The notes below the pieces were generated by a model. The model had not been told where the DNA came from. It did no database searches and saw nothing but the letters and a program-made list of their open reading frames with translations. From the NCBI GenBank assembly GCA_903866395.1, contig CAIPNM010000371.1, positions 5,787 through 37,786 of the forward strand: a DNA stretch of 32,000 bases, given 5' to 3'. A program made the translations under genes and the position numbers. The DNA comes from an uncultured bacterium. Lineage in GTDB: Bacteria > Pseudomonadota > Gammaproteobacteria > Burkholderiales > Burkholderiaceae_E. This document shows positions 5,191 to 28,818 of the stretch, piece by piece. How positions within the stretch are numbered: the stretch's first letter is position 1; each line of letters opens with the position of its first letter.

Positions 5191-5194
5191 ATCG

Positions 5195-9119: not shown

Positions 9120-10750
9120 GCGCCCCAATCTCTATTCTTTTGTGCGCGCTGGGCGGCGAGGGAGGCGGCGTTCTGGCCGGCTGGCTGGTGTCGGCCGCGC
9201 GCGCTGCCGGCCTGGCTGCACAGGCCACGTCCATCCCGGGCGTAGCCCAGCGCACCGGTGCCACCACCTACTACCTTGAGATTTACCCCGAGCCGTTGCC
9301 AGCCGGGGCGCCCAAGCCTGTGCTGGGCCTCAATCCGTTGCCTGGCCGACTCGATCTGCTGGTGTCCTCCGAACTGCTTGAAACCGCACGTCAGGTGGCT
9401 AACGGACTGCCGTCCAGCGACCGCACCACGGTCCTTAGCAACGCGGCGCGCGTACTCACCACCGCTGAAAAAATGGTGATGGGCGACGGCCGCCGCGATG
9501 CGGGGCGCCTGCGCGATCTGGTGGCGGCAAACAGCCACGACCACCGCTTGGTCGACATGACCAGCCTTACCACCCAGGCGGGCACGGTGATGAGCGCAGT
9601 GATGCTGGGGTGCATCGCCGGTGCTGGTCGTCTGCCGCTGCAAAGGGAGCACTTTGAAGCGGTGCTTGCGGGCGACTCGGCGTCGTCGCAGGCCAGCCGG
9701 CGCGGGTTTGAACTGGGTTTCAATGCGGTCACAGCGTCTGGCAATACCGAATGGCGTTCGGTATCGCGTCAGGGCTCGTCGTCGGAGTCGGTTCGTCTGC
9801 CGCAGGCCACGGGCGAGGGGGGCGGTTCGGCGCCTGCCAGCGAGGCTGCAGCCGCTGCGGCGATCGTGTCGCCCTGGGCGCGCGAGCAGGCGGCGCGCTT
9901 TCCGGCCGACGTTCACACGATCGCGGCGCTGGGCATTCAGCGGATGATGGACTACCAGGGCGCCGGCTATGCGGCGCTCTACATCGAGCGACTCCAGTCC
10001 ATCTTGAGCGCAGAGCGTGCTGCGGCATCCCACACGCATCCTGTGACCGTGGAAGCCGCGCGCTGGCTTGCACTCTGGATGGCTTTCGATGATGTCATCC
10101 GGGTGGCGGCCCTCAAGAGTGCTGCCTCGCGTCTGGAGCGCGTGCGGCGCGAAGCCGGGGCTGGTCCCCAGGACCTGCTTAAGCTCTACGATCACTTCAA
10201 ACCTGGTGTGCCTGAGCTCGCCGGTCTGCTTCCTGCGCCCCTGGCGCGTTGGCTGATCGAACGCGATCGTCGCCGGGTGGCCAGGGGGGTGCCGCCCTGG
10301 GCGCTTGCGCTTCGGATCGGTACCCATTCGGCCTTGGGGTTTCTTGCGCTACGGCTGCTCGCAAGCCTGCGGGTCGTACGTCCCTGGGGCAGTCGCTACC
10401 AGAGCGAACAGGCGGCAATCACGACCTGGGTCGAGGCGGTGATGCAGGGCTCGCGCGAGCACCCTGAGCTCGGCCTGGAGATTGCCCGCTGCGGGCGGCT
10501 GATCAAAGGCTATGGGGCCACCAACGAACGCGGCAAACGCAACCTCGCCCATGTGCTCGATCATCTGACCCAGCGGGACTCCCCTGCGCTCACTCGGGCG
10601 GCGGCCATCGCGAGTGTGCGCGACGCTGCGCTCAAGGACGAAGCGGGCCGCGCATTCGATCAGGCGCTGCGCGAGCACGGGGCGCCGCCTCGACCGGTCG
10701 AGGCCAAACCGGTGCTATGGCTGAAAAACCCCCGCACGGGTCGGGCCTGA
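9116..10750 (+). CDS. iorB: Indolepyruvate oxidoreductase beta-subunit family protein, long form with C-terminal extension
   Basis: Its ATG overlaps the iorA stop (ATGA at 9116-9119). The N-terminus ILLCALGGEGGGVLAGWL...TSIPGVAQRTGATTYYLE is the gamma/IorB-type domain. An Ala/Ser/Gly-rich linker and a C-terminal helical domain of about 300 aa follow. Confidence 0.8.
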   Translation: MSAPISILLCALGGEGGGVLAGWLVSAARAAGLAAQATSIPGVAQRTGATTYYLEIYPEPLPAGAPKPVLGLNPLPGRLDLLVSSELLETARQVANGLPSSDRTTVLSNAARVLTTAEKMVMGDGRRDAGRLRDLVAANSHDHRLVDMTSLTTQAGTVMSAVMLGCIAGAGRLPLQREHFEAVLAGDSASSQASRRGFELGFNAVTASGNTEWRSVSRQGSSSESVRLPQATGEGGGSAPASEAAAAAAIVSPWAREQAARFPADVHTIAALGIQRMMDYQGAGYAALYIERLQSILSAERAAASHTHPVTVEAARWLALWMAFDDVIRVAALKSAASRLERVRREAGAGPQDLLKLYDHFKPGVPELAGLLPAPLARWLIERDRRRVARGVPPWALALRIGTHSALGFLALRLLASLRVVRPWGSRYQSEQAAITTWVEAVMQGSREHPELGLEIARCGRLIKGYGATNERGKRNLAHVLDHLTQRDSPALTRAAAIASVRDAALKDEAGRAFDQALREHGAPPRPVEAKPVLWLKNPRTGRA

Positions 10751-10789
10751 GGGCTAGGCGGTTTGATTCGATTTCCGGAGTGCATCGCA

Positions 10790-11770
10790 ATGAACAAGAT
10801 GATTCGTACCCTTCTGTGTGCTGGACTCGCAGTGGCTGCGCTCGCGGGCGGCACGCCGGTTTTGGCGCAGTCGGGCGCCGCACCGCGCCCGCTCCGCATC
10901 GTTGCCAACTTTCCACCGGGGGGTGCGGCCGATCTCATCGCGCGCGCGGTGGCCATTCCGCTCTCAGAATCGCTTGGTCAACCGGTGGTGGTGGAAAACC
11001 GCGCGGGCGCCAACGGCAACCTGGGCGGTGAGGCGGTCGCGCGCTCCGCTCCAGACGGCAGCACGCTGCTCTTGAGTTCGGGCGGCATGGTGTCGGTCAA
11101 TCCGCACATCTATCCCAAAATGAGCTTCGACCCGGCGCGCGAACTGGTGCCGGTCGCATCCGCCGCACGGGTGCTGGTGTTTCTGGTCGCCCGCGCCGAT
11201 CTGCCGGTGGCCGACATCCGCGAATTTCTGTCCTATGTGAAGTCGCGGCCTGGCAAGCTCTCCTTCGGGTCGGCCGGCAACGGCAGTTCCCCGCATCTTG
11301 CCGCCGAGATGATGAAGAGCCAGGCCGAACTGTTTGCGGTCCATGTTCCCTACCGGGGCGCGGCGCCAGCGCTCCAGGATCTGCTCGCTGGTCAGATCGA
11401 TTTTTATTTTGATCCCGGCATCGGGCTCAACCAGGTTCGTGCCGGGAAGCTCAAGTTGCTGGCGGTGGGAAGTCTGCGGCGCTCACCGATGTTCCCCGAT
11501 ACCCCCACGCTCGATGAGGCCGGCCTCAAGGGCTTCGACGCCGATACCGTGTTTGGGTTCTATGCGCCGGCTGGCCTGGCAGTCGAGGCGGTTGCGCGGC
11601 TGAATACCGAGATCAACCGTGCGCTCGCGACGCCCGCAGTCACCGAGCGGATTCGCGCCTTGGGAGGCGAACCGTTGCCGCTCACGCCGGCGCAGTTCGG
11701 TGCCCGGATCGCTGATGATTCGAAGCGCTTTGGCGCGATCATCCGCGAACGCAATATCCGAGGCGACTGA
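10790..11770 (+). CDS. Bug/TctC-family substrate-binding protein (orphan)
   Basis: The signal peptide is MNKMIRTLLCAGLAVAALAGGTPVLAQS. Family blocks are present: RIVANFPPGGAADLIAR, NRAGANGNLG, VPYRGAAPALQDLLAGQIDF. Confidence 0.9.
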   Translation: MNKMIRTLLCAGLAVAALAGGTPVLAQSGAAPRPLRIVANFPPGGAADLIARAVAIPLSESLGQPVVVENRAGANGNLGGEAVARSAPDGSTLLLSSGGMVSVNPHIYPKMSFDPARELVPVASAARVLVFLVARADLPVADIREFLSYVKSRPGKLSFGSAGNGSSPHLAAEMMKSQAELFAVHVPYRGAAPALQDLLAGQIDFYFDPGIGLNQVRAGKLKLLAVGSLRRSPMFPDTPTLDEAGLKGFDADTVFGFYAPAGLAVEAVARLNTEINRALATPAVTERIRALGGEPLPLTPAQFGARIADDSKRFGAIIRERNIRGD

Positions 11771-11781
11771 CTTCCGTTCCT

Positions 11782-14238
11782 ATGCGGCGACCCGCGTTTC
11801 AACGCTCTCTTCCGAAGGGCGATCCAAAACATGAAGCGGGGCGAGTTCAGGCTGGCTCGCGCCTGATATCCCATGCGGCGGCGGGTGCACGTCACGCGCT
11901 GGGCGGGGTGCGACAAGCAGCCCGCTGGGCGTGTCTGGGCGGAGCATTACTCGTGGCGATGCTTCAGGCGACTCAGGCGCAGCCTGGTTCGACACAGGCC
12001 CAATCCGGGCCCATGCAGTTCTCCGCCGCGCCGGCGCTGGCCCGCTCCACATCAGCGACCGATCCGCTTTCGTCCGCCGCCGCCCCGACTTCGCCGCCTT
12101 TGGCGCGACGACCCGTGGTGGCCGTGGTGCTGGGCGGTGGGGGCGCGCGCGGTGCGGCGCATGTGGGTGTGCTCCGCGTGCTCGAACGCGCGGGCGTGCC
12201 GATCGACATCGTGACTGGCACGAGCGCGGGCGCGATCGTGGGCGGCTTGTACGCGGCCGGCCAGTCGCCCGACCAGATCGAGGAGACGCTGCGCGGCATT
12301 GACTGGGACGCCACGCTATCAGATCAGCCCCCCCGTTCGCGTCGGGTGCAAAACAGCCGCGCCGATGAACGGGTGATGATCTCGCGCGAAGTGGCTGGTG
12401 TGAGCGAACTCGAGGTTCGAGCGCCCAGCGCGCTGGTTCAGGGCCAGCAGTTCGATTTCATTCTGCGCAACCTCACCCTGCCGGTTCAGCGCGTGACCGA
12501 CTTCGACCGGTTGCGTGTCCGCTTCCGTGCGGTGGCAACCGATGCGGCCACCGGTGACCCGGTGGTCCTCGGTGGCGGCGATCTCGCGCGCGTGATTCGG
12601 GCAAGCATGGCAGTACCGGCGGTATTTGCCGGGGTTGACATCAATGGACGGTTGTTGATCGACGGAGCGGTATCGAACAACCTGCCGATTTCGGTGGCGA
12701 TCGAGATGGGGGCCGATATTGTGATTGCTGTCGATATCAGCACACCGCTTCGCCCGCGAGAGCAGCTCGGTTCACTACTCGCCATGATGGACCAGATGAC
12801 CGGCTTCCTCACGGCCCGCAACACTGCTGATCAGATCGCACGGCTGCGGGCGGTCGATTTGCTCCTGCGTCCGCAGCTTGATGGCCTTGCGACCTCGGAT
12901 TTTTCGCAGGCGCACCAGGCTGTGCAATTGGGCGAGCGGGCGGCGGCGCAGGCCATCCATCGGATCGAAGAAATCGCCGCGCTCGCGCGCGTCGACACGG
13001 CCCGTCAGCCCGCGTCTGCTTCACCAACGGCAGGGACGGCGCCGGTGTTGCCAGTCATCCGTTTCGTGCGCTTCGAGAACCCGTCTTCGCTGCGCGACGA
13101 CGTGCTGCGCGCCAAGCTTGGCGATCTGCTCGATCGCCCGCTCGATCTCGACAGACTCAAGCTCGGGCTTGACCGTATTTATGCAACCGAGGCCTTCGAA
13201 AGCGTGCGGTATCGCCTGGACGAAGATGGCGAACGCACCGGGCTGGTGGTGTCGGTGACGCCGCGTTCATGGGGGCGAGACGCCCTGAACTTTGGCCTGC
13301 GCATGGCGGCGGAACGCCGGCGCGGAGCCGAATTCGATTTTGGCGTGGCCTACGAGGCGCGGGCGATCAACGAACTCAACGGCAAATGGCGAACCGAACT
13401 TCAGCTTGGCCAGAGCACACTGCTTGCCACCGAAATCTACCAGCCGCTTGATCCTGCGGAATACTGGTTTGTGAATGCACGTCTTGGCGCTTCTGACACG
13501 CTGCGAAAGCGCTACGTCAACAATCAGGCGGTATCGGAATATGGTATTGCGCGAACGGGCGTCCTGGCAGCGTTCGGTGCAAACGTCGATCGCTACGGCG
13601 ACGTGCGCACGGGCTTCCGGCGCTATGTCGGTCACACCCGGCTGGCGGTGGGCGAACGCGATCCCTATCCCCGCTATCAGTTTGATGAGGCGAGTATTTT
13701 TGTCTCCACCGAATTCGAGAACCTCGATTCCATCCGCTTCCCGCGGTCGGGCGGCCGCCTGCTGCTCATTCGCACGCACTCCTTGCCGCATCTTGGCGCG
13801 AGCGCCGACTATCGGCAGTTCGAGGCCCGCGCCACCGTGGCGCGCAGCTGGTCCGCGCACACGCTGATCGGTCAGGCGAATGTCGGACTCACCACCGGCG
13901 GCAGCGCACCGCTTGAAGCTCAGTTCTCCATGGGCGGTCTCTTCACGATGCCGGGCTACAACATTGATTCACTGCTCGGTCAGCAGCTTGTGCATTCATC
14001 GCTCACCTACATGTACTCATTCGGTCGCGTCGGTTTGCTACCGGTCTACCTTGGCGCCTCCTGGCACGCTGGCAATGTCCGCGAGGAGCGGTCGGCAGTC
14101 CAGGGTTCACGGTTACTCCAGGGCCGGGCCGTATTCGCGGGGACCGACACCCTGATCGGTCCAATCTACCTGGGGGTGGGCGCCTCCCCGGGTGTGGGCA
14201 GCGCTCTCTATCTGAACCTCGGTCAGTCCGCATTCTGA
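11782..14238 (+). CDS. Patatin-like phospholipase fused to a POTRA domain and an Omp85-type beta-barrel (PlpD-like, type Vd secretion)
   Basis: Patatin motifs are present: VLGGGGARGAAHVG (oxyanion hole), GTSAG (nucleophile elbow) and DGAVSNNLP (catalytic Asp). A POTRA-like segment follows (IRFVRFENPSSLRDDVLRAKLGDLL...DRIYATEAFESVRYRL), then a roughly 300-aa beta-strand-rich C-terminus ending in LNLGQSAF with a terminal aromatic residue. Start uncertainty: ATG 11782 has no SD and places 42 aa ahead of the signal peptide. GTG 11908 would give a clean signal peptide (VRQAARWACLGGALLVAMLQATQA). Confidence 0.85.
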   Translation: MRRPAFQRSLPKGDPKHEAGRVQAGSRLISHAAAGARHALGGVRQAARWACLGGALLVAMLQATQAQPGSTQAQSGPMQFSAAPALARSTSATDPLSSAAAPTSPPLARRPVVAVVLGGGGARGAAHVGVLRVLERAGVPIDIVTGTSAGAIVGGLYAAGQSPDQIEETLRGIDWDATLSDQPPRSRRVQNSRADERVMISREVAGVSELEVRAPSALVQGQQFDFILRNLTLPVQRVTDFDRLRVRFRAVATDAATGDPVVLGGGDLARVIRASMAVPAVFAGVDINGRLLIDGAVSNNLPISVAIEMGADIVIAVDISTPLRPREQLGSLLAMMDQMTGFLTARNTADQIARLRAVDLLLRPQLDGLATSDFSQAHQAVQLGERAAAQAIHRIEEIAALARVDTARQPASASPTAGTAPVLPVIRFVRFENPSSLRDDVLRAKLGDLLDRPLDLDRLKLGLDRIYATEAFESVRYRLDEDGERTGLVVSVTPRSWGRDALNFGLRMAAERRRGAEFDFGVAYEARAINELNGKWRTELQLGQSTLLATEIYQPLDPAEYWFVNARLGASDTLRKRYVNNQAVSEYGIARTGVLAAFGANVDRYGDVRTGFRRYVGHTRLAVGERDPYPRYQFDEASIFVSTEFENLDSIRFPRSGGRLLLIRTHSLPHLGASADYRQFEARATVARSWSAHTLIGQANVGLTTGGSAPLEAQFSMGGLFTMPGYNIDSLLGQQLVHSSLTYMYSFGRVGLLPVYLGASWHAGNVREERSAVQGSRLLQGRAVFAGTDTLIGPIYLGVGASPGVGSALYLNLGQSAF

Positions 14239-14248
14239 TGACCACACA

Positions 14249-14264
14249 CCCGTTCGCGAACGGG
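14249..14264 (+). terminator. Perfect 16-bp palindrome/hairpin just downstream of the PlpD-like gene
   Basis: CCCGTTCGCGAACGGG is its own reverse complement (6-bp stem, CGCG loop) and lies 11 nt after the stop. No U-tract follows, so terminator function is uncertain. It could equally be a protein-binding site. Confidence 0.3.
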
Positions 14265-14278
14265 GCTCCCTTCGCACG

Positions 14279-14362
14279 CTCGATCTGATCGCTGAGCGGC
14301 GAATTCGTGAGGCGATCGAACGCGGCGAATTGAAAGACCTGCCCGGCTAGGGGCGGCCGCTA
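14279..14362 (+). pseudogene. Remnant of a DUF1992/YhdN-family (DnaJ-C28-like) gene with an in-frame TAG
   Basis: The frame reads LDLIAERRIREAIERGELKDLPG*GRPL. This matches the conserved N-terminal block of the family (E. coli YhdN: LLDQWAERHIIEAQEKGEFDNLPGSGEPL, from memory). There is no start codon upstream in frame. TAG at 14348-14350 sits at the variable position, and similarity ends after GRPL, before the convergent trpB2-like gene. Confidence 0.55.
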
Positions 14363-14412
14363 AGGTGCGCTGGCCCGCGCGCGCCGGGCCGGCGTGCGAT
14401 GAGAAGGCTTGG

Positions 14413-15777
14413 CTACGCGCTCACGCTGGGCAGGCCCGCAAGCGCCATCGCCAGTTCTTTCTCGTCGTAACTTTCGTCACGCAGTTCGCCCGCGAAGTAC
14501 TTCTGGTAGGCGCTCATGTCGAAGTGCCCATGTCCGCACAGGTTGAACAGGATGGTTTCCGAGCGTCCTTCGCGCTTACAGCGTAGCGCCTCTTCAATGG
14601 CGCCTTTGACTGCATGATTTGCCTCCGGCGCGGGTACGATGCCTTCGCTGCGCGCGAACTGAACGCCCGCTGCAAAGCATTCCGTTTGGGTGTAGGCGCT
14701 GGCCTCGATCAACCCAAGTTCCTTCAGATGCGAGACCAGCGGCGCCATGCCGTGATATCGCAGGCCGCCCGCGTGAAACGCCGGTGGCGTGAAGGTAGAC
14801 CCCAAAGTGTGCATCTTGACGAGCGGGGTCATCTTGCCGGTGTCGCCGAAGTCGTAACCGTAGCGGCCTCGCGTGAGCGACGGGCAAGCTGCGGGCTCAA
14901 CCGCAACGATGCGAGGCTTGACCCCGCCTCGCAGACCGTGCCCGATGAAGGGGAAGGTGATGCCGGCGAAATTCGAGCCGCCGCCTGTGCAGCCCACGAT
15001 CACATCGGGCCAGGCGTTGGCCATCTGCATCTGTTCGATGGCTTCGAGACCGACGATAGTCTGGTGCATCAGGACATGGTTCAGCACTGAGCCCAGCGCG
15101 TACTTAGTGTCTTCTCGCTGCGCAGCGAGTTCGACCGCCTCGGAGATGGCGATACCGAGGCTGCCCGGATGGTCGGGCCGCTCTGCCAGCACACTTCGGC
15201 CGTATACAGTTTCTGTCGACGGTGAGGGCAGGCAACGCGCACCATAGGTTTCCATGACTGCGCGCCGGTAGGGCTTCTGGTCATAGGACACCCGAACCTG
15301 GAACACGAGGATTTCCAGCCCATAGATCTGGCCTGCAAAAGAGAGCGAGGTGCCCCACTGACCCGCGCCAGTTTCCGTGGTGAGGCGCTTCACGCCAGCC
15401 GCAGCATTGAAGAACGCCTGCGGCACCGCGGTGTTGGGCTTGTGGCTGCCCGCCGGGCTTACCCCCTCGTATTTGTAAAAAATCTTGGCCGGGGTGCCGA
15501 GTGCCTTTTCGAGGCGGTGTGCGCGATAAAGCGGCGAGGGGCGCCAAAGACGGTAGACCTCGCGCACTGGCTCCGGAATCTCGATCTCGCGCTCGGTGCT
15601 CACTTCCTGAAGGATCAGGTCCATGGGAAAGAGCGGGGCAAGATCTGCCGGGCCGATTGGCTGCAAGGTGCCCGGGTGCAGGACGGGAGGCAGCGCCACG
15701 GGAAGGTCGGCCTGAATGTTGTACCAGGCGCGCGGCATCTGTGCTTCGTCGAGCTGATACTTGGTCGGTGTCGTCAT
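14413..15777 (-). CDS. TrpB2-type (TrpB-like) PLP-dependent beta-replacement enzyme
   Basis: The 454-aa length is typical of TrpB2. The N-terminal extension MPRAWYNIQADLP, then RPSPLYRAHRLEKALGTPAKIFYKYEGVSPAGSHKPNTA (PLP lysine), GGGSNFAG and the C-terminal LFNLCGHGHFD are all present. SD GGAGAC lies upstream. Confidence 0.9.
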   Translation of the reverse strand: MTTPTKYQLDEAQMPRAWYNIQADLPVALPPVLHPGTLQPIGPADLAPLFPMDLILQEVSTEREIEIPEPVREVYRLWRPSPLYRAHRLEKALGTPAKIFYKYEGVSPAGSHKPNTAVPQAFFNAAAGVKRLTTETGAGQWGTSLSFAGQIYGLEILVFQVRVSYDQKPYRRAVMETYGARCLPSPSTETVYGRSVLAERPDHPGSLGIAISEAVELAAQREDTKYALGSVLNHVLMHQTIVGLEAIEQMQMANAWPDVIVGCTGGGSNFAGITFPFIGHGLRGGVKPRIVAVEPAACPSLTRGRYGYDFGDTGKMTPLVKMHTLGSTFTPPAFHAGGLRYHGMAPLVSHLKELGLIEASAYTQTECFAAGVQFARSEGIVPAPEANHAVKGAIEEALRCKREGRSETILFNLCGHGHFDMSAYQKYFAGELRDESYDEKELAMALAGLPSVSA

Positions 15778-15843
15778 GCCGTGTCTCCGTCGTTGAGTGG
15801 GAATGATCTGTAACGCCTTGCCCTTGCGCCTGGAATCTGGTGG

Positions 15844-16827
15844 TCAGTCAGCGAATACGCCCGCTTTTTTGATGACCGGCCCCCACTTGGCGATTTCTGC
15901 CTGGAGATGAGTGCGCAGTCCCTCAGGGGAAATTTTGTCAGCGGGCGGAATGTCCGAACTCAGATCGGCCATCCGTTTGACGACCGCCGCGTCGGTGAGC
16001 GCTTCACGAAGCGAACGGGTGAGTTTTTCGGTGATGTCACGCGGCGTGCCCTTGGGGGCGTAGACGCCGTGCCAGACCTTCACTTCGAAGCCCTTGAGCC
16101 CCTGCTCGTCAAGGGTTGGCACGCTGGGTAGCGCTGCCAACCGGCTGGTGGAGGTGACGCCATAAATCTTCACCCGCCCGTCGCGGATCATTGGAACAGT
16201 CTGTGTGGTCTGGTCGCAAAGAAGGTCGACCTGACCGCCCAGCAGATCGGTCATGGCCGGGCCAGTTCCTTTATAGGGGACGGTAGTGAGGTCGGTGGCG
16301 ATGGCGGACATGAACATCATGCCGCACAGATGCGAGACCGCGCCCAGGCCCGCGTTGGCAAGCGTTACCTTGTCCTTGTTGGCCTTCACATAAGCGATCA
16401 GCTGCTGCAGGTTTTCAGCGGGAAAATCTTTCCTGGCCAGCATGGTCATGGGTACATCAAGCGCCTGACCGATGTATTCAAAGCTGGCGAGCGGGTCGAA
16501 AGACAGCCGACGGTAGAGCGCCGGCGCAGTGGCCATCCCCATATGATGGATCAGCACGGTGTAGCCATCGGGGTTTGATTTGGCAACGCGCTGTGAAGCG
16601 ATGGTGCCGCCTGCGCCCACGGTGTTTTCCACCACCACCGTTGTGCCCAGCGATTTGCCCATCGGGCCCGAGATCATGCGCGCGACCACATCGGTGGGGC
16701 CGCCGGCCGCGAATGGCACAACCAGAACGATGGGCTTGGTGGGGTAGGACTGGGCACTCGCCTGCGAACCCACCGCTGCCAGGGCAGCGGCGAGCAGGGG
16801 CAGGAAAATGCGGGCGCGTGGGTTCAT
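15844..16827 (-). CDS. Bug/TctC-family substrate-binding protein (orphan)
   Basis: The signal peptide is MNPRARIFLPLLAAALAAVGSQASAQS. Family blocks are present: PIVLVVPFAAGGPTDVVAR, ENTVGAGGTIA, VPYKGTGPAMTDLLGGQVDL. SD GAGGAAAG lies upstream. Confidence 0.9.
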   Translation of the reverse strand: MNPRARIFLPLLAAALAAVGSQASAQSYPTKPIVLVVPFAAGGPTDVVARMISGPMGKSLGTTVVVENTVGAGGTIASQRVAKSNPDGYTVLIHHMGMATAPALYRRLSFDPLASFEYIGQALDVPMTMLARKDFPAENLQQLIAYVKANKDKVTLANAGLGAVSHLCGMMFMSAIATDLTTVPYKGTGPAMTDLLGGQVDLLCDQTTQTVPMIRDGRVKIYGVTSTSRLAALPSVPTLDEQGLKGFEVKVWHGVYAPKGTPRDITEKLTRSLREALTDAAVVKRMADLSSDIPPADKISPEGLRTHLQAEIAKWGPVIKKAGVFAD

Positions 16828-16888
16828 GGCTTTCCTCGGTTGGCGCGCACTGTCGTGCGGAAAAACGGGATGTTAACCGGCGATTCGC

Positions 16889-17917
16889 TTAACCGCCGAG
16901 ATGGCGCGCGACATCGGCGTGAAGTTGCAGCCAGCGGCCCACCGACTCGGCGGGCCGCCGCCCCAGCCCGCATTCGCAGGCAATGCCGAAGGCCGGCGCG
17001 AACGGCCGCGCGGCGTGAATTCGCTCGAGCGCACCCTCGACGCCATCGTCCAGATGCAGAAGCCCCAGAAACAGCTCGCTCCTGGGCGCAAGGCCCAGAC
17101 CGCCGAGCGGGGCGAAATAATTTGAGTCAGTCCGGTTCTGGGGCACCGGTAGATGAAGAAAGTCCAGGCGTCGTGTTGTCCGCGCAATCAGCCCGTTGGC
17201 CACGGCCACCAGGTTTGCCGTGTCCACGGGCTCTTTCCAGTGCCGGTTGTTCATGCTGCCATAGCAGAGATGAAGCCCGAGTTCCACCCCGGCGGGAACC
17301 GCGTTCAGCAGTCTGGCGACGCTGTCGAGTACGCCGCTTTCAATGTCGTTGAAGGGGGCGGGATAGACCCGCTCCCACCAACTCATTTCGGTAGCAACGT
17401 CCCACTGAATGCACAGTGACTCGGATGGAATGACCTCGCAGAGCGCGGCCAGTTCGGCCAGTAGCGCGGCTTCGTAAATCGGGTGAATCTCACGCTGCCA
17501 GTGGTAGCTGATGAAGGAATAGACCGGTGCCCAGGCGGTTGGGAGCGCAACCTGCAGACGCGTGTCCGGAGCGAGGGTGCCGCGGGCCTTGAGCTCCTGA
17601 AAGACCCGCCAGGAGTCGATAGCTTCGGCCGCGAACCCGAGCGGGCCGAAGCGTACGTCGGAGGGTTGCGCGCCGGGGCGCAGCGTGAACGGCGGGAACA
17701 GTTGATAGTCGCGTTCGCGTGCGCTGGATTCGACCAGCGCAGCAACCGCTCCAAATACGGCGCGCTGCCAGGCGATCCAGTTACTGCGGCGACCGGTCTC
17801 GCCGTCTGGCAGGCGCCGCGCGCTGCGTCCCAGTGTTTGCGCGGCCGCCTGAAAAACGGTCGCCGAATCCCTGAGCGGCACGCTGCCCACCAGCAGCGTG
17901 GCTACGCCGGTGGACAT
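16889..17917 (-). CDS. Short MetE-like / UROD-superfamily TIM-barrel protein, putative Zn-dependent alkyl- or methyltransferase (function unknown)
   Basis: The 342-aa product shows the block order of the catalytic domain of cobalamin-independent methionine synthase. The blocks are LLVGSVPLR (cf. GSFPR), CIQWDVATE (cf. IQIDEPA), LHLCYGS (His-x-Cys zinc ligands), LFLGLLHLDD (cf. LGVVD) and ACECGLGR (C-terminal Cys ligand, cf. DCGL). Its start overlaps the upstream gene's stop by 1 nt (TGATG). Confidence 0.55.
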   Translation of the reverse strand: MSTGVATLLVGSVPLRDSATVFQAAAQTLGRSARRLPDGETGRRSNWIAWQRAVFGAVAALVESSARERDYQLFPPFTLRPGAQPSDVRFGPLGFAAEAIDSWRVFQELKARGTLAPDTRLQVALPTAWAPVYSFISYHWQREIHPIYEAALLAELAALCEVIPSESLCIQWDVATEMSWWERVYPAPFNDIESGVLDSVARLLNAVPAGVELGLHLCYGSMNNRHWKEPVDTANLVAVANGLIARTTRRLDFLHLPVPQNRTDSNYFAPLGGLGLAPRSELFLGLLHLDDGVEGALERIHAARPFAPAFGIACECGLGRRPAESVGRWLQLHADVARHLGG

Positions 17918-18912
17918 CAGCGGCCGACGAACTGGTTGGTGAACAGTTCAGCGACCGGTGTTTCCTTGGGAACAATGCCCTGAGACACGTAAAACTTCTG
18001 AATGGCGGAGAGCTTCTCGGCGTTGATCGCGCCGAGCGGGCCCGCGCCCTGGTAGGTGTACTCGGTGTACTGGCTGAACACATCTTCAAGGAACGCTTCG
18101 CGGCCTTTGAAGGTGGGCGAGCCGGCAATGAAATCAGGCACCACCGCCTTCGGGTCTTTCATGATGTCGGCAAGCCCGGCGAGTGTGGCGCGAACCAGTT
18201 TCTGGATGAGCTCGGGCCGCTTGGCGATCATGTCGTCGGAGGCAAGGATGGCCTGCGTGGTGGTGGGGATGAACTGGTCGGAGGCCACCGTGGTGACCTT
18301 GGCGCCAGCGCCACGGGCGCTGATCGCAAAATCGACCGGGCCCGCAAACGCCTGAGCCTTGCCGGTGGCGGGCTGCTGCCAGACGCCCACCGGGCCAGCC
18401 GCCTGCACCTCGACATCATTCTTGGTGAGTCCCGCCGACGCCAGCACACCCAGGAGCACGTAGTAGGACGTGTCCTGATAAGACATGACGGTGATGGTGC
18501 GGCCCTTGAGATCGGCCACTTTCTTGATGCCCGCGGTATCGAGAACATGAAGGTGATGGAGCGCGCGGCCACCGATCAGGGCGACAGCTTTGACTGGCAC
18601 GCCTTGGGCGCGAACGATGATGGGCGTGTCGCCGATTCCGCCGCCGATGGGCGCATTGCCCGCGCCGACCTGCTTGGCTACATCGACCCCGCCCTTGGCG
18701 ACCAGGAAGTTCACCTTCAGGCCTTCGCGGGCGTAGTAGCCGCGCTGCTGCGCGAGCACCCAGGGCGCAAACGCCGGCAGGGTGGGCGGGGCAGGCAACA
18801 GGTAGGCCACCTCTTCCAACTTTTGCGGGGCTTGCGCCTGCGCTGCAGTACAGGGGATGAGGGTGGCGGCAGAAAGGGAAAGGGCCGCGAGGGTGCCGGC
18901 GATACGGTTCAT
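17917..18912 (-). CDS. NMT1/THI5-like (NitT/TauT/SsuA-type) periplasmic substrate-binding protein, no cognate permease or ATPase nearby
   Basis: The signal peptide is MNRIAGTLAALSLSAATLIPCTAAQAQA. A two-lobe SBP pattern follows (PWVLAQQRGYYAREGLKVNF...GGVDVAKQVGAGNAPIGG...IKKVADLKGRTITV...LASAGLTKNDVEV). SD AGGAGGAG lies upstream. Confidence 0.75.
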   Translation of the reverse strand: MNRIAGTLAALSLSAATLIPCTAAQAQAPQKLEEVAYLLPAPPTLPAFAPWVLAQQRGYYAREGLKVNFLVAKGGVDVAKQVGAGNAPIGGGIGDTPIIVRAQGVPVKAVALIGGRALHHLHVLDTAGIKKVADLKGRTITVMSYQDTSYYVLLGVLASAGLTKNDVEVQAAGPVGVWQQPATGKAQAFAGPVDFAISARGAGAKVTTVASDQFIPTTTQAILASDDMIAKRPELIQKLVRATLAGLADIMKDPKAVVPDFIAGSPTFKGREAFLEDVFSQYTEYTYQGAGPLGAINAEKLSAIQKFYVSQGIVPKETPVAELFTNQFVGR

Positions 18913-18939
18913 GAGCTCCTCCTGACGGGGTGGACGCTT

Positions 18940-18955
18940 GCGCCGGGACCGGCGC
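18940..18955. promoter_or_regulatory. GC-rich inverted repeat in the divergent intergenic region (candidate operator or 5'-UTR hairpin)
   Basis: GCGCCGG-GA-CCGGCGC forms 7-bp arms. It lies in the 107-bp spacer between the minus-strand SBP operon and the plus-strand Rieske operon. No convincing -35/-10 pair could be placed by eye. Confidence 0.2.
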
Positions 18956-19019
18956 CGCGCGTGTGTTTTAGTGAGTCACATAGTAGCATCGGCCTGTCAT
19001 TTTTCAGCAGGGGACGGGG

Positions 19020-19379
19020 ATGAATCCAAGCGGCGAAACCATCATGCTTACCGTGTTCCTTCGGCATGATCAGTCGCAGAACCTCGACCAGATTCAGCGC
19101 ACACTTGCCGAGCGCAACTGGTGGGATCGGTTTCCGCCAGCAGGCGTCGACATCGTGTCGTGGAATGTGGTGATGGGGATTGGTCAGATCGTTACCCTGC
19201 GCCTGCCGCCCGACAAACTAGCGATGGTCAATGTCGAACTGGAGCGCTCGGCGTGGGGGGTGTTCACCACCGAATTTTTTCCCACCTACGATTTTGTGCC
19301 CGTGCGTGAGCGGATCCGCGCGCGCGCTCATGCTGGCGAATGGTCGGCGCCGTCGCCCCAGTCCGGAGAGCAGCCATGA
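19020..19379 (+). CDS. Small cytoplasmic protein of unknown function (possibly DUF3303-like alpha+beta fold)
   Basis: The 119-aa ORF has strong GC3 bias and GGGGA just upstream of its ATG. The pattern RFPPAGVDIVSWNVV...(15)...W...TEFFPTYDF recalls the DUF3303 skeleton (P-x-G-[VL]-x2-x-SW ... W ... P-V). That comparison is from memory and weak. An alternative start is ATG 19044. Confidence 0.6.
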   Translation: MNPSGETIMLTVFLRHDQSQNLDQIQRTLAERNWWDRFPPAGVDIVSWNVVMGIGQIVTLRLPPDKLAMVNVELERSAWGVFTTEFFPTYDFVPVRERIRARAHAGEWSAPSPQSGEQP

Positions 19380-19618
19380 ATCCGTTCGGCGATCGCAGGT
19401 TTCCCGAGCCCTGGATGCAGCCGCACCAGGCCCGCCGGGCTCCGCCAACCGATGATGAGAACGCACTGGCCGCATCCATCGAGGCTGCGTTTGCGGCGGG
19501 GGTGTGGGATCTTGCAGGCTTGGTCGCGCGCTTGAACGCCGATGGTCTGCGCACGCCGGCCGGCGAGCCCTGGACCGAGGCGCGCTACCGCGATGTCATG
19601 GCCCGACTGGGTCGCTGA
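19376..19618 (+). CDS. Small protein with a recombinase-domain-like helix-turn-helix segment (function unknown)
   Basis: The 80-aa ORF starts in an ATGA overlap with the upstream stop and has strong GC3 bias. The C-terminal LAGLVARLNADGLRTPAGEPWTEARYRDVMARLG resembles the Ln-x2-Gi-x-T-x2-G-x2-W-x5-V-x2-iL segment of serine-recombinase 'recombinase' domains. No catalytic recombinase domain is present. Confidence 0.6.
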   Translation: MNPFGDRRFPEPWMQPHQARRAPPTDDENALAASIEAAFAAGVWDLAGLVARLNADGLRTPAGEPWTEARYRDVMARLGR

Positions 19619-19625
19619 GGGACAC

Positions 19626-20696
19626 ATGCCCACCGATCCCACCGATCAAGAGATCGAGACCCTGCTTCGTATGGGGCTGCGTAACCGCTGGCATCCGCTT
19701 TGTCCGTCGCATTTTGTGACCGATCGACCCGTGTCGCTGTATCGGCTCGGGCTCAAGCTCGTGCTGTGGCGCGACGCTTCAGGAACAGTTTGCGTGCAGG
19801 ATGATCACTGCCCGCATCGCGGCGCGCCGCTCTCCCTAGGGCGTCACCTGGGCGACCGGCTCGCGTGTGCCTATCATGGCGTGGAGGTGTCCACAACCGG
19901 CAAGGTGCTGTCGGTGCCGGGCAGTCCAGGCTGCAGGCTTGAAGGGCAGATGGCAGTTCGCACCTATCCTGCGCGCGAACTGAAAGGGGCAATCTTTGCC
20001 TACGTGGGCGATTCGCTTCATCCGGAACCGTGTGCGTTCGAGCCGCCGGAGCAGCTGGCCTCCGACGAATACGAAGCATTTCTCTGCTACGCCGAATGGC
20101 GAACCGCTTACCGCTATCTGATCGACAACAATCTCGATCCCATGCACGGCAGCTTTCTGCATCGGCAGTCACATTCCATGGCGGTGGGCGATGTCCGCGC
20201 AAATTTTCAGGTGCGCGATACCGCGAGCGGGTTTCGCTTCGAGAAGGTCACGCAGCGTGATGTGAATTTCGACTGGAGCGAGTGGTGTGACACCGGTGCC
20301 CTCTACGCGCGGCTGGAAATCCCCTATCCCAGATCGGGCGGACCCGGCGGCAACTTCGGCATCATCTTCATGTCCACGCCTATCTCCGACACGCTCTGCG
20401 CAAACTTCTTCTGGCGTAATCGCCGCGTGCAGGGTTGGGAGCGTGACACCTGGCGTTTTCTTTACCGGAACCGGCTCGAGGCCCGGCACTGGCAGGTGCT
20501 TGAGCAGGATCGTGCAATGCTCGAGGCCGTTGAACCCGATGCTAACCAGAACGAGTGCTTCTACGACCATGATGTGGGGGTTGCGCGCGTGCGCCGCTGG
20601 ATGCGGGAACGCGCAATTGAACAGCTGCGGGCGCTGAACGCGGCTGGTGCGCGCAAGCCCTGGGAGCGACGCGCTGCCGCAGGAGTTTCAACATGA
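19626..20696 (+). CDS. Rieske [2Fe-2S] non-heme-iron oxygenase, alpha (catalytic) subunit, alpha-only (KshA/phthalate-family-like) type
   Basis: SD GAGGGA precedes ATG 19626. The Rieske motif is CPHRGAPLSLGRHLGDRLACAYHG (C-x-H-x17-C-x2-H). The mononuclear iron motif is NNLDPMHGSFLHRQSH (D-x2-H-x4-H). No beta subunit, ferredoxin or reductase gene is in the window. Confidence 0.85.
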   Translation: MPTDPTDQEIETLLRMGLRNRWHPLCPSHFVTDRPVSLYRLGLKLVLWRDASGTVCVQDDHCPHRGAPLSLGRHLGDRLACAYHGVEVSTTGKVLSVPGSPGCRLEGQMAVRTYPARELKGAIFAYVGDSLHPEPCAFEPPEQLASDEYEAFLCYAEWRTAYRYLIDNNLDPMHGSFLHRQSHSMAVGDVRANFQVRDTASGFRFEKVTQRDVNFDWSEWCDTGALYARLEIPYPRSGGPGGNFGIIFMSTPISDTLCANFFWRNRRVQGWERDTWRFLYRNRLEARHWQVLEQDRAMLEAVEPDANQNECFYDHDVGVARVRRWMRERAIEQLRALNAAGARKPWERRAAAGVST

Positions 20697-21094
20697 CCCT
20701 TCGCAGAGTCACCTGTCCTGAGGTGCCCGAATCGGTAGCGCCTTTCTCGCAATGCCTGGTGGTCGACCGACAGGTGTTCCTGTCGGGGGTGACAGCGGCC
20801 GGGCCCGACGGGGAGATCCGCGGTGGCAGCGACATGGCGGCGCAAACGCGTGCCTGCCTGGAGAAAATCAGCCATTTATTGCGGGCGGCGGACTCGGATC
20901 TGAGTGATGTGGTGAAGCTCACGATTTACACCACAGACATCTCGCGCCGCGTCGAAATTTCCGCTGCGCGCCGCGAGCTTCTTCGCGAGCCTTTTCCGTG
21001 TTCTACGCTGGTGGAGGTGAAGGCGCTCGCTGCGCCCGGATTGCTGGTTGAAATCGATGCCACCGCGCTGATTGGCGCCTCGCGGGGAAGCTGA
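20693..21094 (+). CDS. YjgF/YER057c/UK114 (Rid) family protein lacking the canonical RidA arginine
   Basis: Its ATGA overlaps the oxygenase stop, and AGGAG lies 7 nt upstream. The family fold blocks are PFSQCLVVDRQVFLSGVTA, AQTRACLEKISHLL, VVKLTIYTTD and LLVEIDATA. The segment FPCSTLVEV aligns with E. coli RidA FPARSCVEV, so the deaminase Arg is replaced by Ser. Confidence 0.8.
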   Translation: MTLRRVTCPEVPESVAPFSQCLVVDRQVFLSGVTAAGPDGEIRGGSDMAAQTRACLEKISHLLRAADSDLSDVVKLTIYTTDISRRVEISAARRELLREPFPCSTLVEVKALAAPGLLVEIDATALIGASRGS

Positions 21095-21099
21095 CCGCC

Positions 21100-23085
21100 A
21101 TGACCCACTTGCCGCCCGACCTGCTGCGCTTTAAGGACCGTATCCTGTTTCTCTCAGAGGACCCGGACAAAGTCGCATTACAACTCGCCGGCCAGGCGCT
21201 CGCCCGTGAAGCGGCGGGCACGCTTCGCGACAACGTCTCCACTGACGAGATCACACCCGTGCCGGCCATGACCATATGGGACGACCGGCTGGGCCGTATC
21301 CCTTACACCGGCTTTAAGGCCGGGCAGCGCCTGCCGATCGGGCGCGATGCGATTCGCGACGCCGGTATCGAGGTGGTGGTGGCTGGCGCACGCTATGGCA
21401 AGGGGTCTTCGCGCGAGCATAGTCCGGCGGCCGAGCGGGCGGCAGGTGTTCGCCTGGTGATTGCCGAAAGCTTCGAGCGCATTTACAGGCAGAACGCTGA
21501 CAATATCGGTCTCCTCACCTCCACCGATTTCGGGCTGATTGAACGGATCCGTCGCGGTGAGCCGATCGCGCTTTCTGAACTGCTCGCTGACCGCGATCAG
21601 CTCGCAGCCGCCATTGTTCGCGCGGGCGGACTGATCGAGTTCGGTCAGCGCCATCTGCGCTCGGTGAGCCCGCAACCGATGGCGGCCTCGGGTGACGCTC
21701 CCCCTGCGCGGACGCTCTTCGAAAAAATCATCGAGCGCAATCTGCTTGCAACCCCGGTGAGCGCTCAGGCGGTGCATCCTGGCGCCGGGGTGTTTGTACA
21801 CGCCGACTGGCGCTTCATCATTGAGTACTACGCGGGCATGGCCATTCATATGCTGGAGCGCCGCTTTGGCAGCGCGCTCTCGCTTGTGGACCCTGAACGT
21901 ATCGTGATGTTCGAAGATCACACCTCCTATGCCGAGGAAAGCACGGTGCATGTTCGACTGGGGCTGCTCTCCCAGGTGCGCGAGATGTGCGAGGTGCAGC
22001 GCAATTTTGCCGAACGCCATCAGCTGAAGTTCTTTCGCACGCTGCCCGAAGACGAGGCGGCCGCCGATGAGGGTCGGCATGTGGCGGGTATTTCTCACGC
22101 TGTGATGTCTGAGCAGTTCGCGCTGCCCGGCCAGCTCATCGTGGGCACCGATTCGCATACGCCGCATAGCGGCGCGCTCGGGTGCGTGGCGATCGGTGTA
22201 GGCACGACCGATATGGCCAACGCCTTCGTCACCGGGGCGATCCGGCTCACCATTCCCGACACGATTCGGGTCGAATTCATGGGGCGTCTGCGACCCGGCG
22301 TCACGGCCAAGGACGCGGTGTTGCATCTGCTGTCGCAGCCGGCCATCCGGGCGGGTGGGGCGCTGGGCAAGGTGTTTGAATTCTGTGGTGAGGCGGTTCG
22401 GGCCATGGATACCGACGAACGGGCCACGCTCACCAACATGGTGGCCGAGCTCGGTGGACTCACTGGGCTGGTCGAGCCCGACGACGAAACCGTCCGCTAC
22501 CTGAAGGAGCGCCGCGGTATCGACTTCCAAATCGAAAGCTGGATGCGCAGTGACCCCGACGCGCCCGTTGCGGAGCATCTGCGGATCGATTGCGCCGAGC
22601 TCGGGCCGATGCTGGCGCGGCCCGGCGATCCGGGTAACGGCCTCGCAATGGCTGAATTGGCTGCACGGGTGCCGATCACCATCGCCTACGGGGGCTCGTG
22701 CACCGGCGGCAAGCGCGCCGATTTCGATCATTATTTTGCGGTGCTGCGCTGGGCCTTCGATCGCGGGCTCAAAGTGGCGCCTGGGGTGCAGCTCTTCCTG
22801 CAGTTCGGCACCACGGCCGTCCGCGACTATTGCATCGCCCGCGGTTACATGCCGGTGTTTGAATGGTCGGGCGCGAGGCTGTTGCAGCCTTCCTGCGGCG
22901 CCTGTGCCAACTGCGGCCCGGGTTCCTCGGTGAGTGCCGAGCAGGTGACCGTGAGCGCAATCAACCGCAATTTCCCTGGCCGTAGCGGGCCGGGTCAGGT
23001 GTGGCTCGCGAGCCCGCCCACGGTCATTGCGAGTGCAATCGCGGGCGAACTGATGTCGTTCGAGGGACTGCAGGCTCGTCACTGA
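21100..23085 (+). CDS. Aconitase-family hydro-lyase, single chain with the LeuD-like swivel domain N-terminal to the LeuC-like domains (order 4-1-2-3)
   Basis: Residues 1 to about 190 carry NVSTDEITP, GARYGKGSSREHSPAAERAAGVRLVIAESFERIYRQNADNIGL (small-subunit/swivel motifs). Residues from about 200 to 661 carry GTDSHTPHSGALGCVAIGVGTTDMA, GGSCTGGK, PSCGACANCGPG (three cluster Cys) and AINRNFPGRSG. All canonical catalytic motifs are intact. Confidence 0.85.
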   Translation: MTHLPPDLLRFKDRILFLSEDPDKVALQLAGQALAREAAGTLRDNVSTDEITPVPAMTIWDDRLGRIPYTGFKAGQRLPIGRDAIRDAGIEVVVAGARYGKGSSREHSPAAERAAGVRLVIAESFERIYRQNADNIGLLTSTDFGLIERIRRGEPIALSELLADRDQLAAAIVRAGGLIEFGQRHLRSVSPQPMAASGDAPPARTLFEKIIERNLLATPVSAQAVHPGAGVFVHADWRFIIEYYAGMAIHMLERRFGSALSLVDPERIVMFEDHTSYAEESTVHVRLGLLSQVREMCEVQRNFAERHQLKFFRTLPEDEAAADEGRHVAGISHAVMSEQFALPGQLIVGTDSHTPHSGALGCVAIGVGTTDMANAFVTGAIRLTIPDTIRVEFMGRLRPGVTAKDAVLHLLSQPAIRAGGALGKVFEFCGEAVRAMDTDERATLTNMVAELGGLTGLVEPDDETVRYLKERRGIDFQIESWMRSDPDAPVAEHLRIDCAELGPMLARPGDPGNGLAMAELAARVPITIAYGGSCTGGKRADFDHYFAVLRWAFDRGLKVAPGVQLFLQFGTTAVRDYCIARGYMPVFEWSGARLLQPSCGACANCGPGSSVSAEQVTVSAINRNFPGRSGPGQVWLASPPTVIASAIAGELMSFEGLQARH

Positions 23086-23212
23086 CCCACGCCGGGCCCC
23101 GGCGCCTGATGTCCCCGGAAGGTGAGCGGTTGAAGCTTGTTATGATCGTCCCGACCTACCGGTTTGGGGCCGCTCGGCCGCCTTCCTTTCATCCACTGTG
23201 ACCGGGTTAGCC

Positions 23213-24475: not shown

Positions 24476-24503
24476 TTCTGTTCGAATGTTTCCGAGGTGT
24501 GTG

Positions 24504-25724: not shown

Positions 25725-25728
25725 GCCC

Positions 25729-28700: not shown

Positions 28701-28818
28701 GGTTCAGCGCCCACTCGCGGTGGTGGTGATCGGCGGTCTGATCACCTCCACCCTGCTCACCCTGGTTGTGCTGCCTGCGCTCTACCGCTGGTTCGACGAT
28801 CGTCCGCAAGAGCTCTGA
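25729..28818 (+). CDS. Heavy-metal-efflux type RND permease (CusA/CzcA family); metal specificity not assignable
   Basis: The 1029-aa product has N-terminal MIASLIRAALGQRLIVIVLSLVLVAFG...AFPDVTNVQVQI, typical of HME-RND. The TMH4 motif is GGLAIAIGLMVDATVVVVEN. It has a 12-TM/2-large-loop architecture and follows OMF-MFP in czcCBA order. Confidence 0.9.
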   Translation: MIASLIRAALGQRLIVIVLSLVLVAFGVREALRLSVDAFPDVTNVQVQIATEAVGRSPEEIERFVTVPLEIAMTGLPGLVEMRSLNKSGLSIITLVFTDQTDVYFARQMVTERLIEVTPRMQAGIVPVLGPVSTGLGEVYQYTIDHPDDGQRALTEQELAERRAVQDWVVRPLLRSIPGVAEINSQGGYVRQYQVQVDPGRLFHFRMSVQQVVQAIAANNANSSGGILPRASEQFLIQGVGLIRTVDDIASIVIREDAGVPVFVRDVASVSIGSEVRQGAIVKGGYTESVAGIVLMMRGGNAKEIVGRIKDRVDEINAKGMLPGGLKIVPFYDRTDLVDAALWTVGKVLIEGILLVVVILFIFLGDVRSSLIVVATIIIAPLTTFIVMNRYGISANLMSLGGLAIAIGLMVDATVVVVENVYLKLGEYVPGGKSRRRIVFEATTEVATPTIFGIAIIILVFLPLMTLQGIEGKMFAPLALTIAIALAVSLVVSLLLSPVLCSFFLKGGGDHETWLIAFLKRRYTPLLDAALGLPWVTVAAAMALLAAAVGLFPLLGKSFMPIMKEGALTPQINRVPSISLEESLRIEMDAMKRIAAVPGVKMVVSKLGRGESPADPAGPNESDPIVLLDPKSGRSQDEIDEDIRQRLSTIPGVQIVLSQPIAERVDEMVTGVRSQLAIKVFGNELSELRRISEAVARVLRSVPGSQDIRIERLSGQQSLQIEIDRFAIARYGLNVADIHQIIESAVGGKEVTSVYEGERRYAVTVRFPPDRRNTIEAISAIKVRSHDGSEVPLSALARIRLVDGPAQLSREGAKRRVVVGADVNGRDLGGFVAEVRQRLDAEVRLPEGYYFDFGGQFENMERAMATLSVIVPITVGAIFFLLFLLFNSVKLASLIILVLPFASIGGIFGLFVTGEYLSVPASVGFIALWGIAVLNGVVLVTCIRRLRDDGKDVALAVREGCLLRFRPVMMTATVALLGLVPFLFATGPGSEVQRPLAVVVIGGLITSTLLTLVVLPALYRWFDDRPQEL

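Follow-up and report, generated by a model that had tools for sequence, protein, structure and literature searches.

The stretch of DNA analysed here (the window) comprises 32,000 nucleotides (32 kb) of contig CAIPNM010000371.1, from an uncultured bacterium of the Burkholderiales, and its central feature is a run of four minus-strand genes that encode an NMT1/SsuA-type periplasmic solute-binding protein, a 342-residue protein reminiscent of the methionine synthase MetE, a TctC/Bug-family periplasmic receptor and a stand-alone TrpB2, and that faces away from an operon containing a Rieske monooxygenase. The explanation that best accommodates the results, to which we would give a probability of about 0.55, is that the locus is a mosaic, in which a recurring core formed by the NMT1 gene and the gene of the 342-residue protein stands back-to-back with the Rieske operon and has had TctC and TrpB2 added to it, and in which the 342-residue protein would be a zinc-dependent thiol methyl- or alkyl-transferase using an imported donor.

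At the level of sequence families the 342-residue protein (16889–17917, minus strand) is an orphan. Searched alone, it matches nothing in Pfam, in NCBIfam or, by phmmer, among the sequences of the PDB; the profile of its family, built like the family alignment from 42 members, finds no MetE in the PDB, and a Pfam scan of these 42 members at E up to 10 returns spurious matches only, PF01717 and TIGR01371 being recognised neither in the window protein nor in any of them. It is at the same time a large family: a word-indexed search yields more than 2258 homologs, every one of them named “hypothetical,” and an exhaustive HMMER search over 1.84 billion representatives finds 4146, counted at the 50%-identity level, with E no greater than 1e-3; for 892 the E value is 1e-30 or less. 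The best 80 loci in species-representative genomes all come from metagenome-assembled genomes (MAGs), belonging to Burkholderiales, Rhodospirillales and other Alphaproteobacteria, Chloroflexia, Thermomicrobiales, and Ktedonobacteria.

It is the fold that brings this family close to MetE. The AlphaFold (AF2) model of the 342-residue protein is a (beta/alpha)8 barrel (predicted local distance difference test score, pLDDT, 93.5; predicted template-modelling score, pTM, 0.92), and when this model is compared with the PDB by Foldseek, MetE or short MetE-like structures take all of the first 14 places (E 6.7e-9 to 1e-5; query template-modelling score, TMq, 0.57–0.66), among them 3bq5 (E 6.7e-9, TMq 0.65) and 1ypx (E 1.8e-8); the next match after this group is uroporphyrinogen decarboxylase (UROD), at E 1.9e-4. 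A second barrel is absent, and therefore so is a folate-binding domain.

The sequences had to be joined through intermediates. When the family was compared by hhalign with the single sequence of Escherichia coli MetE there was no result, and the alignment of the family hidden Markov model to the C-terminal domain of that protein (hmmalign) paired only the segment HLCYG with H641-M-C643-Y. The bridge was provided by canonical short Meth_synt_2 genes (PF01717, E 1e-18 and 5e-14) present in three of the fetched loci: against one of their proteins hhalign aligned the family at E 0.068 over 176 columns, and against a four-sequence Meth_synt_2 alignment that includes E. coli MetE, at E 6e-4 over 322 columns. 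In the pairing given by hhalign, which is also visible in the sequences themselves, VGS12vP of the window protein corresponds to IGS433FP of MetE, PDGE40 to HGE484, IQWD173 to IQID599, H216-L-C218-Y to H641-M-C643-Y, and E-C316-G-L to D-C726-G-L. In MetE the zinc ligands are H641, C643, E665, and C726, and homocysteine is bound by S433, E484, and D599; the same residues are kept, at very similar positions, in the core synthases MesA-D (PMC7857596). Among the 42 family members H216 and C218 are invariant, as are S12, E40, and D173, and C316 is found in at least 90% of them. The model and the motifs together support the view that the 342-residue protein is a short MetE-like enzyme, at the level of fold and motif. 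The preliminary description of this DNA had spoken of a short MetE-like zinc enzyme with a His-x-Cys...Cys pattern, and that designation stands as regards fold and motifs, but not as regards membership of a known family profile or possession of the Glu ligand.

If these residues act as they do in MetE, a metal, presumably zinc, would be held by H216, C218, C316, and a fourth ligand other than Glu, and would deprotonate the thiol of an amino-acid-like substrate, probably homocysteine, held in turn by S12, E40, and D173. The thiolate would then be methylated, or given some other small alkyl group, by a donor other than methyl-folate, this donor being most likely a compound imported by the adjoining transporter, and the Rieske oxygenase and RidA could subsequently oxidise or deaminate what remained of it. 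The best reading of the modelled protein is thus that of a predicted zinc-dependent thiol methyl- or alkyl-transferase, comparable to a core methionine synthase that works on an imported donor. A bolder form of the proposal, speculative and on the whole rather unlikely, is that the family would constitute a fifth folate-independent core family of methyltransferases for homocysteine (or a related amino-thiol) in aerobic Proteobacteria and Chloroflexi, taking its methyl group from an imported compound alongside the oxygen-dependent h119/HTH_62/Rieske proteins, and so coupling catabolic demethylation to the formation of methionine.

The surroundings of the family were surveyed in 82 non-redundant loci, with the genes of the fetched loci called by a caller that uses the guanine-plus-cytosine content at codon positions. 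A transporter is found near the family gene in 40 of the 82 (tripartite ATP-independent periplasmic, or TRAP, DctPQM systems in 20, NMT1/ATP-binding cassette, or ABC, systems in 14, and the major facilitator superfamily in 6), an HTH_62 gene paired with a VanA-type Rieske gene in 11, and an NMT1 ortholog of at least 45% identity likewise in 11. An alphaproteobacterial contig, at 54% identity, has the family gene divergent from h119-HTH_62-Rieske exactly as in the window, with NMT1 genes and RidA nearby, and rearranged versions of the same association occur in several Betaproteobacteria; in the locus labelled L085 the family gene lies between ABC_tran-NMT1-permease and a flavin adenine dinucleotide (FAD) monooxygenase-HTH_62-Rieske-RidA series, and in L086 it is embedded between an ABC ATPase and a permease. 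The NMT1 protein of the window (331 residues; 17917–18912, minus strand; PF09084, E 8e-33; signal peptide ending in AQA) is the first of the run and is SsuA-like, with TIGR01728 (SsuA_fam) and the sulfonate and taurine equivalogs scoring under their cut-offs. Permease and ATPase genes for it are absent at this locus; they flank its ortholog in L085, L169, L170, and L172, and in the related clusters NMT1 is a component of an ABC_tran-NMT1-BPD_transp_1 transporter.

The family loci also hold some genes that belong to the subject of methyl transfer in their own right. In L084 a canonical short Meth_synt_2 (PF01717) gene stands directly upstream of the family gene (71–1054 and 1063–2061), with an open reading frame (ORF) resembling glutathione S-transferase (GST) downstream, while a Meth_synt_2 gene lies about 2.6 kb from the family gene in L074 (4301–5452 and 5457–6479) and L048 (about 4482–5477), adjoining a VanA-type Rieske oxygenase in L074. 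Among the family representatives there are apparent fusions, from unverified gene calls, to a class-I methyltransferase (P0271 and P0273), GST_N (P0257), a flavin reductase (P0342), and ornithine cyclodeaminase (P0341). The adjoining Meth_synt_2 genes and the apparent fusions are a weak hint of methyl or thiol chemistry. Tandem paralogs of the family are seen in L027 (6850–7827 and 8001–8987), P0096, and P0241, an apparent 586-residue fusion in P0096 being really two tandem paralogs merged.

The divergent operon begins, as had been described, at 19020; an intergenic region of 107 nucleotides (18913–19019) separates it from the NMT1 gene. All of its genes are on the plus strand: h119 (19020–19379), for a highly conserved, ferredoxin-like protein of 119 residues; a small HTH_62 protein (19376–19618; PF20552, E 9e-26); the oxygenase component of a VanA-type, class IA-like Rieske monooxygenase (19626–20696; PF00355 and PF19112), with GAGGGA before its start; a deaminase of the RidA/YjgF family (20693–21094; PF01042, E 5e-25); and a fused LeuD-LeuC-type hydro-lyase of the aconitase family (21100–23085; 661 residues, PF00694 at residues 89–140 and PF00330 at residues 266–520). 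To judge from the ATGA overlaps of h119 with HTH_62 (19376–19379) and of the Rieske gene with RidA (20693–20696), this operon is translationally coupled. The h119 protein has 1219 homologs of 65–97% identity with 38 invariant residues, and its AF2 model (pLDDT 81) has the order beta-alpha-beta-beta-alpha-beta, for which a fold search of the PDB gave no specific match and only generic ferredoxin-like ones (E at least 1e-3). In the related loci HTH_62 always precedes the Rieske gene and h119 always precedes both, in one case, P0182, as an h119-HTH_62 fusion; a literature search on HTH_62/PF20552 yielded nothing. The relatives of the Rieske protein in the PDB include phthalate dioxygenase-like proteins, SxtT, DdmC, CarAa, KshA, and NdmA. 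There is no reductase gene here; in L169 (whose protein is annotated to Oceanibacterium hippocampi) and L170 one comes after RidA, and in L085, L169, and L170 the Rieske gene has RidA itself behind it. Seen from h119, there is a wider, conserved catabolic cluster, consisting of h119-HTH_62-Rieske-RidA together with a Fer2-type reductase, ABC_tran-NMT1-BPD_transp_1, Cupin_2, a short-chain dehydrogenase/reductase, an alpha/beta-hydrolase, and IclR.

One sister MAG contig, L006, at 89% nucleotide identity, has suffered a clean deletion of 1.93 kb, equivalent to 19138–21065 of the window (L006 6745–6747, with CCGC microhomology). Of h119 a stub of 42 codons is left there, HTH_62 and the Rieske gene are gone altogether, and RidA has lost the greater part of its length; L007 is also without the HTH_62-Rieske block. 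Conservation of the fused aconitase-type gene does not reach beyond the clade of the window (L006 and L007), and after the deletion this gene directly abuts NMT1.

As regards the run itself, the preliminary description was correct in every detail of its layout. The NMT1 gene and that of the 342-residue protein meet at gccgcTGATGtcc, with a stop/start overlap of 1 nucleotide at 17917 (TGATG); gaps of 61 nucleotides (16828–16888) and 66 nucleotides (15778–15843) precede TctC and TrpB2, respectively, and the Shine-Dalgarno sequences are GAGGAAA, 6 nucleotides ahead of the TctC ATG, GGAGA, 7 nucleotides ahead of the TrpB2 ATG, and GGAGGA upstream of the ATG of NMT1. Neither gap contains a terminator-like site, the overall frequency of such sites being not above that in shuffles, and the RNA folding of the two gaps and of the 107-nucleotide intergenic region is not better than that of shuffles. 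A promoter scan, including this intergenic region, detected no sigma-70-like promoter, and Rfam gave no riboswitch or leader match, either in the window at gathering thresholds or in 14200–19200 at E up to 1. A perfect palindrome of 9 bp, GTGAGTCAC, occurs at 18971–18979 within the divergent region and is a candidate site for a regulator; the cluster here has no regulator gene, unlike related clusters, which have one for IclR, LysR, or MarR. Since the ratio of nonsynonymous to synonymous substitution rates (dN/dS) against the sister contigs is 0.03–0.05 for NMT1, 0.08–0.19 for the 342-residue protein, 0.015–0.05 for TctC, and 0.004–0.015 for TrpB2, the four minus-strand ORFs are real, constrained genes, and on their arrangement the co-transcription of all four is plausible.

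TctC and TrpB2 have a different history from that of the core. TrpB2 (454 residues; 14413–15777, minus strand), a pyridoxal phosphate (PLP)-dependent beta-replacement enzyme of the TrpB2_o type, scores 730 bits with NF009057 (cut-off 366) and 622 bits with TIGR01415 (cut-off 519), and has the PLP-binding lysine motif GSHKPN. No trp gene, trpA included, occurs in the 32 kb, and a possible operon-based trpB1 would lie outside this view. The TctC receptor (327 residues; 15844–16827, minus strand; PF03401, E 2.5e-69) is likewise an orphan, there being no tctA or tctB in the window, and it has two further paralogs there, at 5138–6220 and 10763–11770 (three in all). The identities earlier assigned to NMT1, TctC, and TrpB2 are confirmed by their matches to PF09084, PF03401, and NF009057, and the observations that the receptors lack membrane components and that TrpB2 lies outside any trp operon also hold. 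From the side of the family, TrpB2 and an orthologous TctC are found downstream of the family gene in 5 of the 82 loci (L005, L006, L007, L009, and L012), all of them Burkholderiales, in which the 342-residue protein has at least 73% identity and TrpB2 97–100%; 69 of the 82 have enough downstream flank to reveal TrpB2. From the side of TrpB2, a scan of metagenomes gave 80 loci (L089–L168) at 72–98% identity, in which NMT1, the MetE-like gene, and TctC stand upstream only in L089 (98%), the other 79 (72–91% identity) having none of the three; the sequence upstream of TrpB2 extends for 3.5 kb or more in about 40 of the 80. No neighbour of TrpB2 is conserved in these loci, the largest cluster being that of a SerB-like phosphatase of the haloacid dehalogenase (HAD) type, in 5 of the 80. 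TrpB2 has been reported to use O-phosphoserine, which might lend some interest to these SerB-like neighbours.

Such a situation is in agreement with the literature, in which no TrpB2 group is larger than that of the TrpB2_o genes, those outside operons, and these genes lack a conserved genomic setting (Merkl, 2007; PMC1854888), and in which TrpB2 has been linked to the salvage of indole (Hiyama et al., 2014, as cited in PMC11085991). The Bug/TctC receptors, for their part, have undergone a massive expansion in Bordetella-like genomes, where most of them are unassigned (PMC11452294), and the ortholog of the present one, at 90% identity or more, is confined to the window's own clade. Because of the surveys from both sides, the literature on TrpB2_o and the commonness of orphan TctC receptors, TctC and TrpB2 are, as far as sequence comparison can tell, lineage-specific additions in one Burkholderiales lineage, where they are probably co-transcribed with the upstream genes; TrpB2 probably keeps a housekeeping-like role, making tryptophan from free indole, and would not be a dedicated partner of the MetE-like enzyme. 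What had been called unusual, a stand-alone TrpB2 and an orphan TctC, are both well-known situations.

Several observations weigh against the mosaic with a thiol transferase at its core. The sequence link to MetE is weak, with an hhalign probability of 28% and no Pfam match at E up to 10, and the position of the fourth ligand (E665 of MetE) faces P257-P259, in the Pro-rich strand FLH255LPVP, with no conserved Glu or Asp; the invariant H255, D264, or H288 may act as a substitute. The neighbourhoods of the family are heterogeneous, so that several substrates are possible. The Rieske cluster occurs without the family gene in L169, L170, and L172, and in L006 the family gene and the other three minus-strand genes have remained under constraint after the loss of the Rieske block. 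Finally, the four-gene order persists in contigs with synonymous divergence (dS) >1, and some selection to keep TctC and TrpB2 there is possible. Because the 342-residue protein fails the family profile test and is without one of the zinc ligands, its family is a remote variant of the MetE/core-synthase kind and not a member of it; and because the Rieske cluster occurs without the family gene, and the family gene outlives the deletion of the Rieske block, the link of the MetE-like/NMT1 pair to the Rieske module is, on the loci compared, real but facultative. The earlier idea of a single locus of about 8.7 kb is thus upheld in the recurring link of this pair to the Rieske operon, but not as an obligatory unit, L006 having deleted HTH_62-Rieske-RidA while keeping the four genes.

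The alternative that survives best, although we regard it as unlikely, is that the 342-residue protein is a biosynthetic methionine synthase, the fifth of the core families, in which homocysteine would be methylated from a cellular carrier and the methyl group supplied by h119, HTH_62, and the Rieske protein, in the manner of MesD with its oxygen-dependent partner. The conserved residues for zinc and homocysteine would agree with this, as would the occurrence of the family in aerobic lineages with an oxygenase adjoining, and the one apparent flavin-reductase fusion recalls the MesD/MesX/flavin-reductase neighbourhood (PMC7857596). However, the neighbours are transporters and catabolic genes and not those of methionine or S-adenosylmethionine (SAM), the tandem paralogs (L027 and P0096) do not suit such a role, no SAM, B12, or methionine riboswitch was found upstream with Rfam, and the Rieske block, present in only 11 of the 82 loci, could be deleted in the sister contig.

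A dedicated four-gene pathway, which was the suggestion of the preliminary description, is very doubtful. Here TrpB2 would use an imported nucleophile, together with serine or O-phosphoserine, to form a beta-substituted alanine, which the MetE-like enzyme would alkylate or dealkylate, and the two receptors would deliver the substrates. The genes are indeed co-oriented, with the overlap of 1 nucleotide and short gaps free of terminator-like sites, amino-acid-like substrates are plausible for both enzymes, and seven contigs, whose dS reaches about 1.7, maintain the order NMT1, MetE-like, TctC, TrpB2; but these seven contigs are one clade, with TrpB2 at 97–100% identity, the partners are absent from the 79 other TrpB2 loci (about 40 of all 80 having the 3.5 kb of upstream sequence), TrpB2 is absent from the 77 other family loci (69 of all 82 having flank enough to reveal it), and its dN/dS is that of a gene evolving in a housekeeping-like manner. 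In the loci compared, the synteny of TrpB2 and the MetE-like gene is not conserved beyond the window's own clade.

No less doubtful is a barrel of the MetE/UROD type that would not be an alkyltransferase and would serve some other reaction, such as a UROD-like decarboxylation or the hydration of an imported organic acid, as might be suggested by the Foldseek match to UROD, the missing Glu ligand, the TRAP and NMT1 transporters, which point to organic anions, and the many residues invariant in the family and without a MetE counterpart (H226, H255, H288, R262, D264, and H333), since H-x-C-Y, [DE]-C-G, and the three residues for binding the amino acid do not vary and are collinear with those of MetE, the MetE matches surpass that of UROD by about 4 orders of magnitude, and UROD is not known to have such a metal site.

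Two further candidates were rejected. Thiamin-pyrimidine salvage (TenA with NMT1/THI5) is represented by TenA in four related Rhodospirillales contigs only, beside the housekeeping mnmA, and carnitine or betaine catabolism (BKACE and cyclase neighbours) by four loci only. A literature search combining MetE-like, Rieske, and demethylase yielded nothing on the family of the 342-residue protein.

The remainder of the window contains genes that stand apart from these subjects. Two genes at 6957–10750 encode an IorA/IorB-like 2-oxoacid:ferredoxin oxidoreductase (TPP_enzyme_C and Fer4; POR and DUF6537) and are followed by the TctC receptor at 10763–11770, about 2.6 kb beyond the 3′ end of TrpB2. Directly after the aconitase-like gene, 23198–28818 holds a CzcCBA-like operon for an outer-membrane factor, a membrane-fusion protein, and a resistance-nodulation-division (RND) pump, read from the translations only and syntenic in L006 and L007. 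On the minus strand, 28821–29687 and 30260–31531 encode a lyase of the phosphoenolpyruvate (PEP)-mutase/isocitrate-lyase family and a second LeuC-like large subunit of the aconitase family, a pair that resembles those of the dimethylmaleate hydratase/dimethylmalate lyase type; the LeuC-like protein falls into one cluster with the fused aconitase of 21100–23085.

In summary, the operon taken as a whole is a mosaic specific to one lineage, its TrpB2 and TctC parts are ordinary, and the fact that TrpB2 is packed tightly into it, as in an operon, cannot be read as a sign that a pathway is shared. Nor is the kind of system new: the family of the 342-residue protein, which is large and uncurated, is a remote variant of the type represented by MetE and the core synthases. 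The interest lies in this family, whose 4146 representatives have no entry in Pfam or NCBIfam and yet keep the residues that serve methionine synthase for its zinc-thiolate chemistry and for binding the amino acid. If the protein were a thiol methyltransferase, aerobic bacteria of soil and water would have one more way of removing methyl or alkyl groups from the compounds that they import, the set of folate-independent relatives of MetE would be extended, and names could be given to many “hypothetical proteins,” as well as to the unannotated h119 and HTH_62 partners of a widespread Rieske oxygenase cluster.

With respect to known systems, the Rieske protein is akin to the class IA monooxygenases of the VanA/VanB type (vanillate O-demethylase, the dicamba demethylase DdmC, TsaM, and NdmA), sharing with them the Rieske and VanA_C domains and having among them its closest solved relatives; a Fer2/NAD_binding_1 reductase follows in the related clusters, though not in the window, and the Rieske gene here is distinguished by always coming behind h119 and HTH_62, small conserved proteins without a described role. 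The TctC receptor resembles the other orphan Bug/TctC receptors of Burkholderiales in its full PF03401 domain, in the lack of tctA and tctB, and in having several paralogs within 32 kb, which is typical of the Bug expansion (PMC11452294 and PMC5812351); what is peculiar to this lineage is that it lies between the MetE-like gene and TrpB2. In the same way, the TrpB2 of the window agrees with TrpB2_o in its full-length match to NF009057, in the lack of trpA or trp genes nearby, and in the lack of a conserved neighbourhood, and has nothing distinctive except its position downstream of TctC, in this narrow lineage only. The closest relatives of the 342-residue protein are the catalytic C-terminal barrel of MetE and the core synthases MesA-MesD (PF01717; Price et al., 2021; PMC7857596), with which it shares the (beta/alpha)8 fold and, in the case of the core synthases, the length of about 340 residues and the absence of the folate-binding N-terminal barrel; the Ser/Glu/Asp and H-x-C...C positions, 12, 40, 173 and 216, 218, 316, are 8, 59, 174 and 216, 218, 301 in MesA. 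It departs from all of these in having no match to PF01717 or TIGR01371, in the lack of a conserved Glu or Asp ligand, and in additional invariant His, Arg, and Trp residues, and, in contrast with MesA-D, its neighbours are not corrinoid proteins, the Wood-Ljungdahl pathway, or DUF1852, but transporters and a catabolic Rieske cluster.

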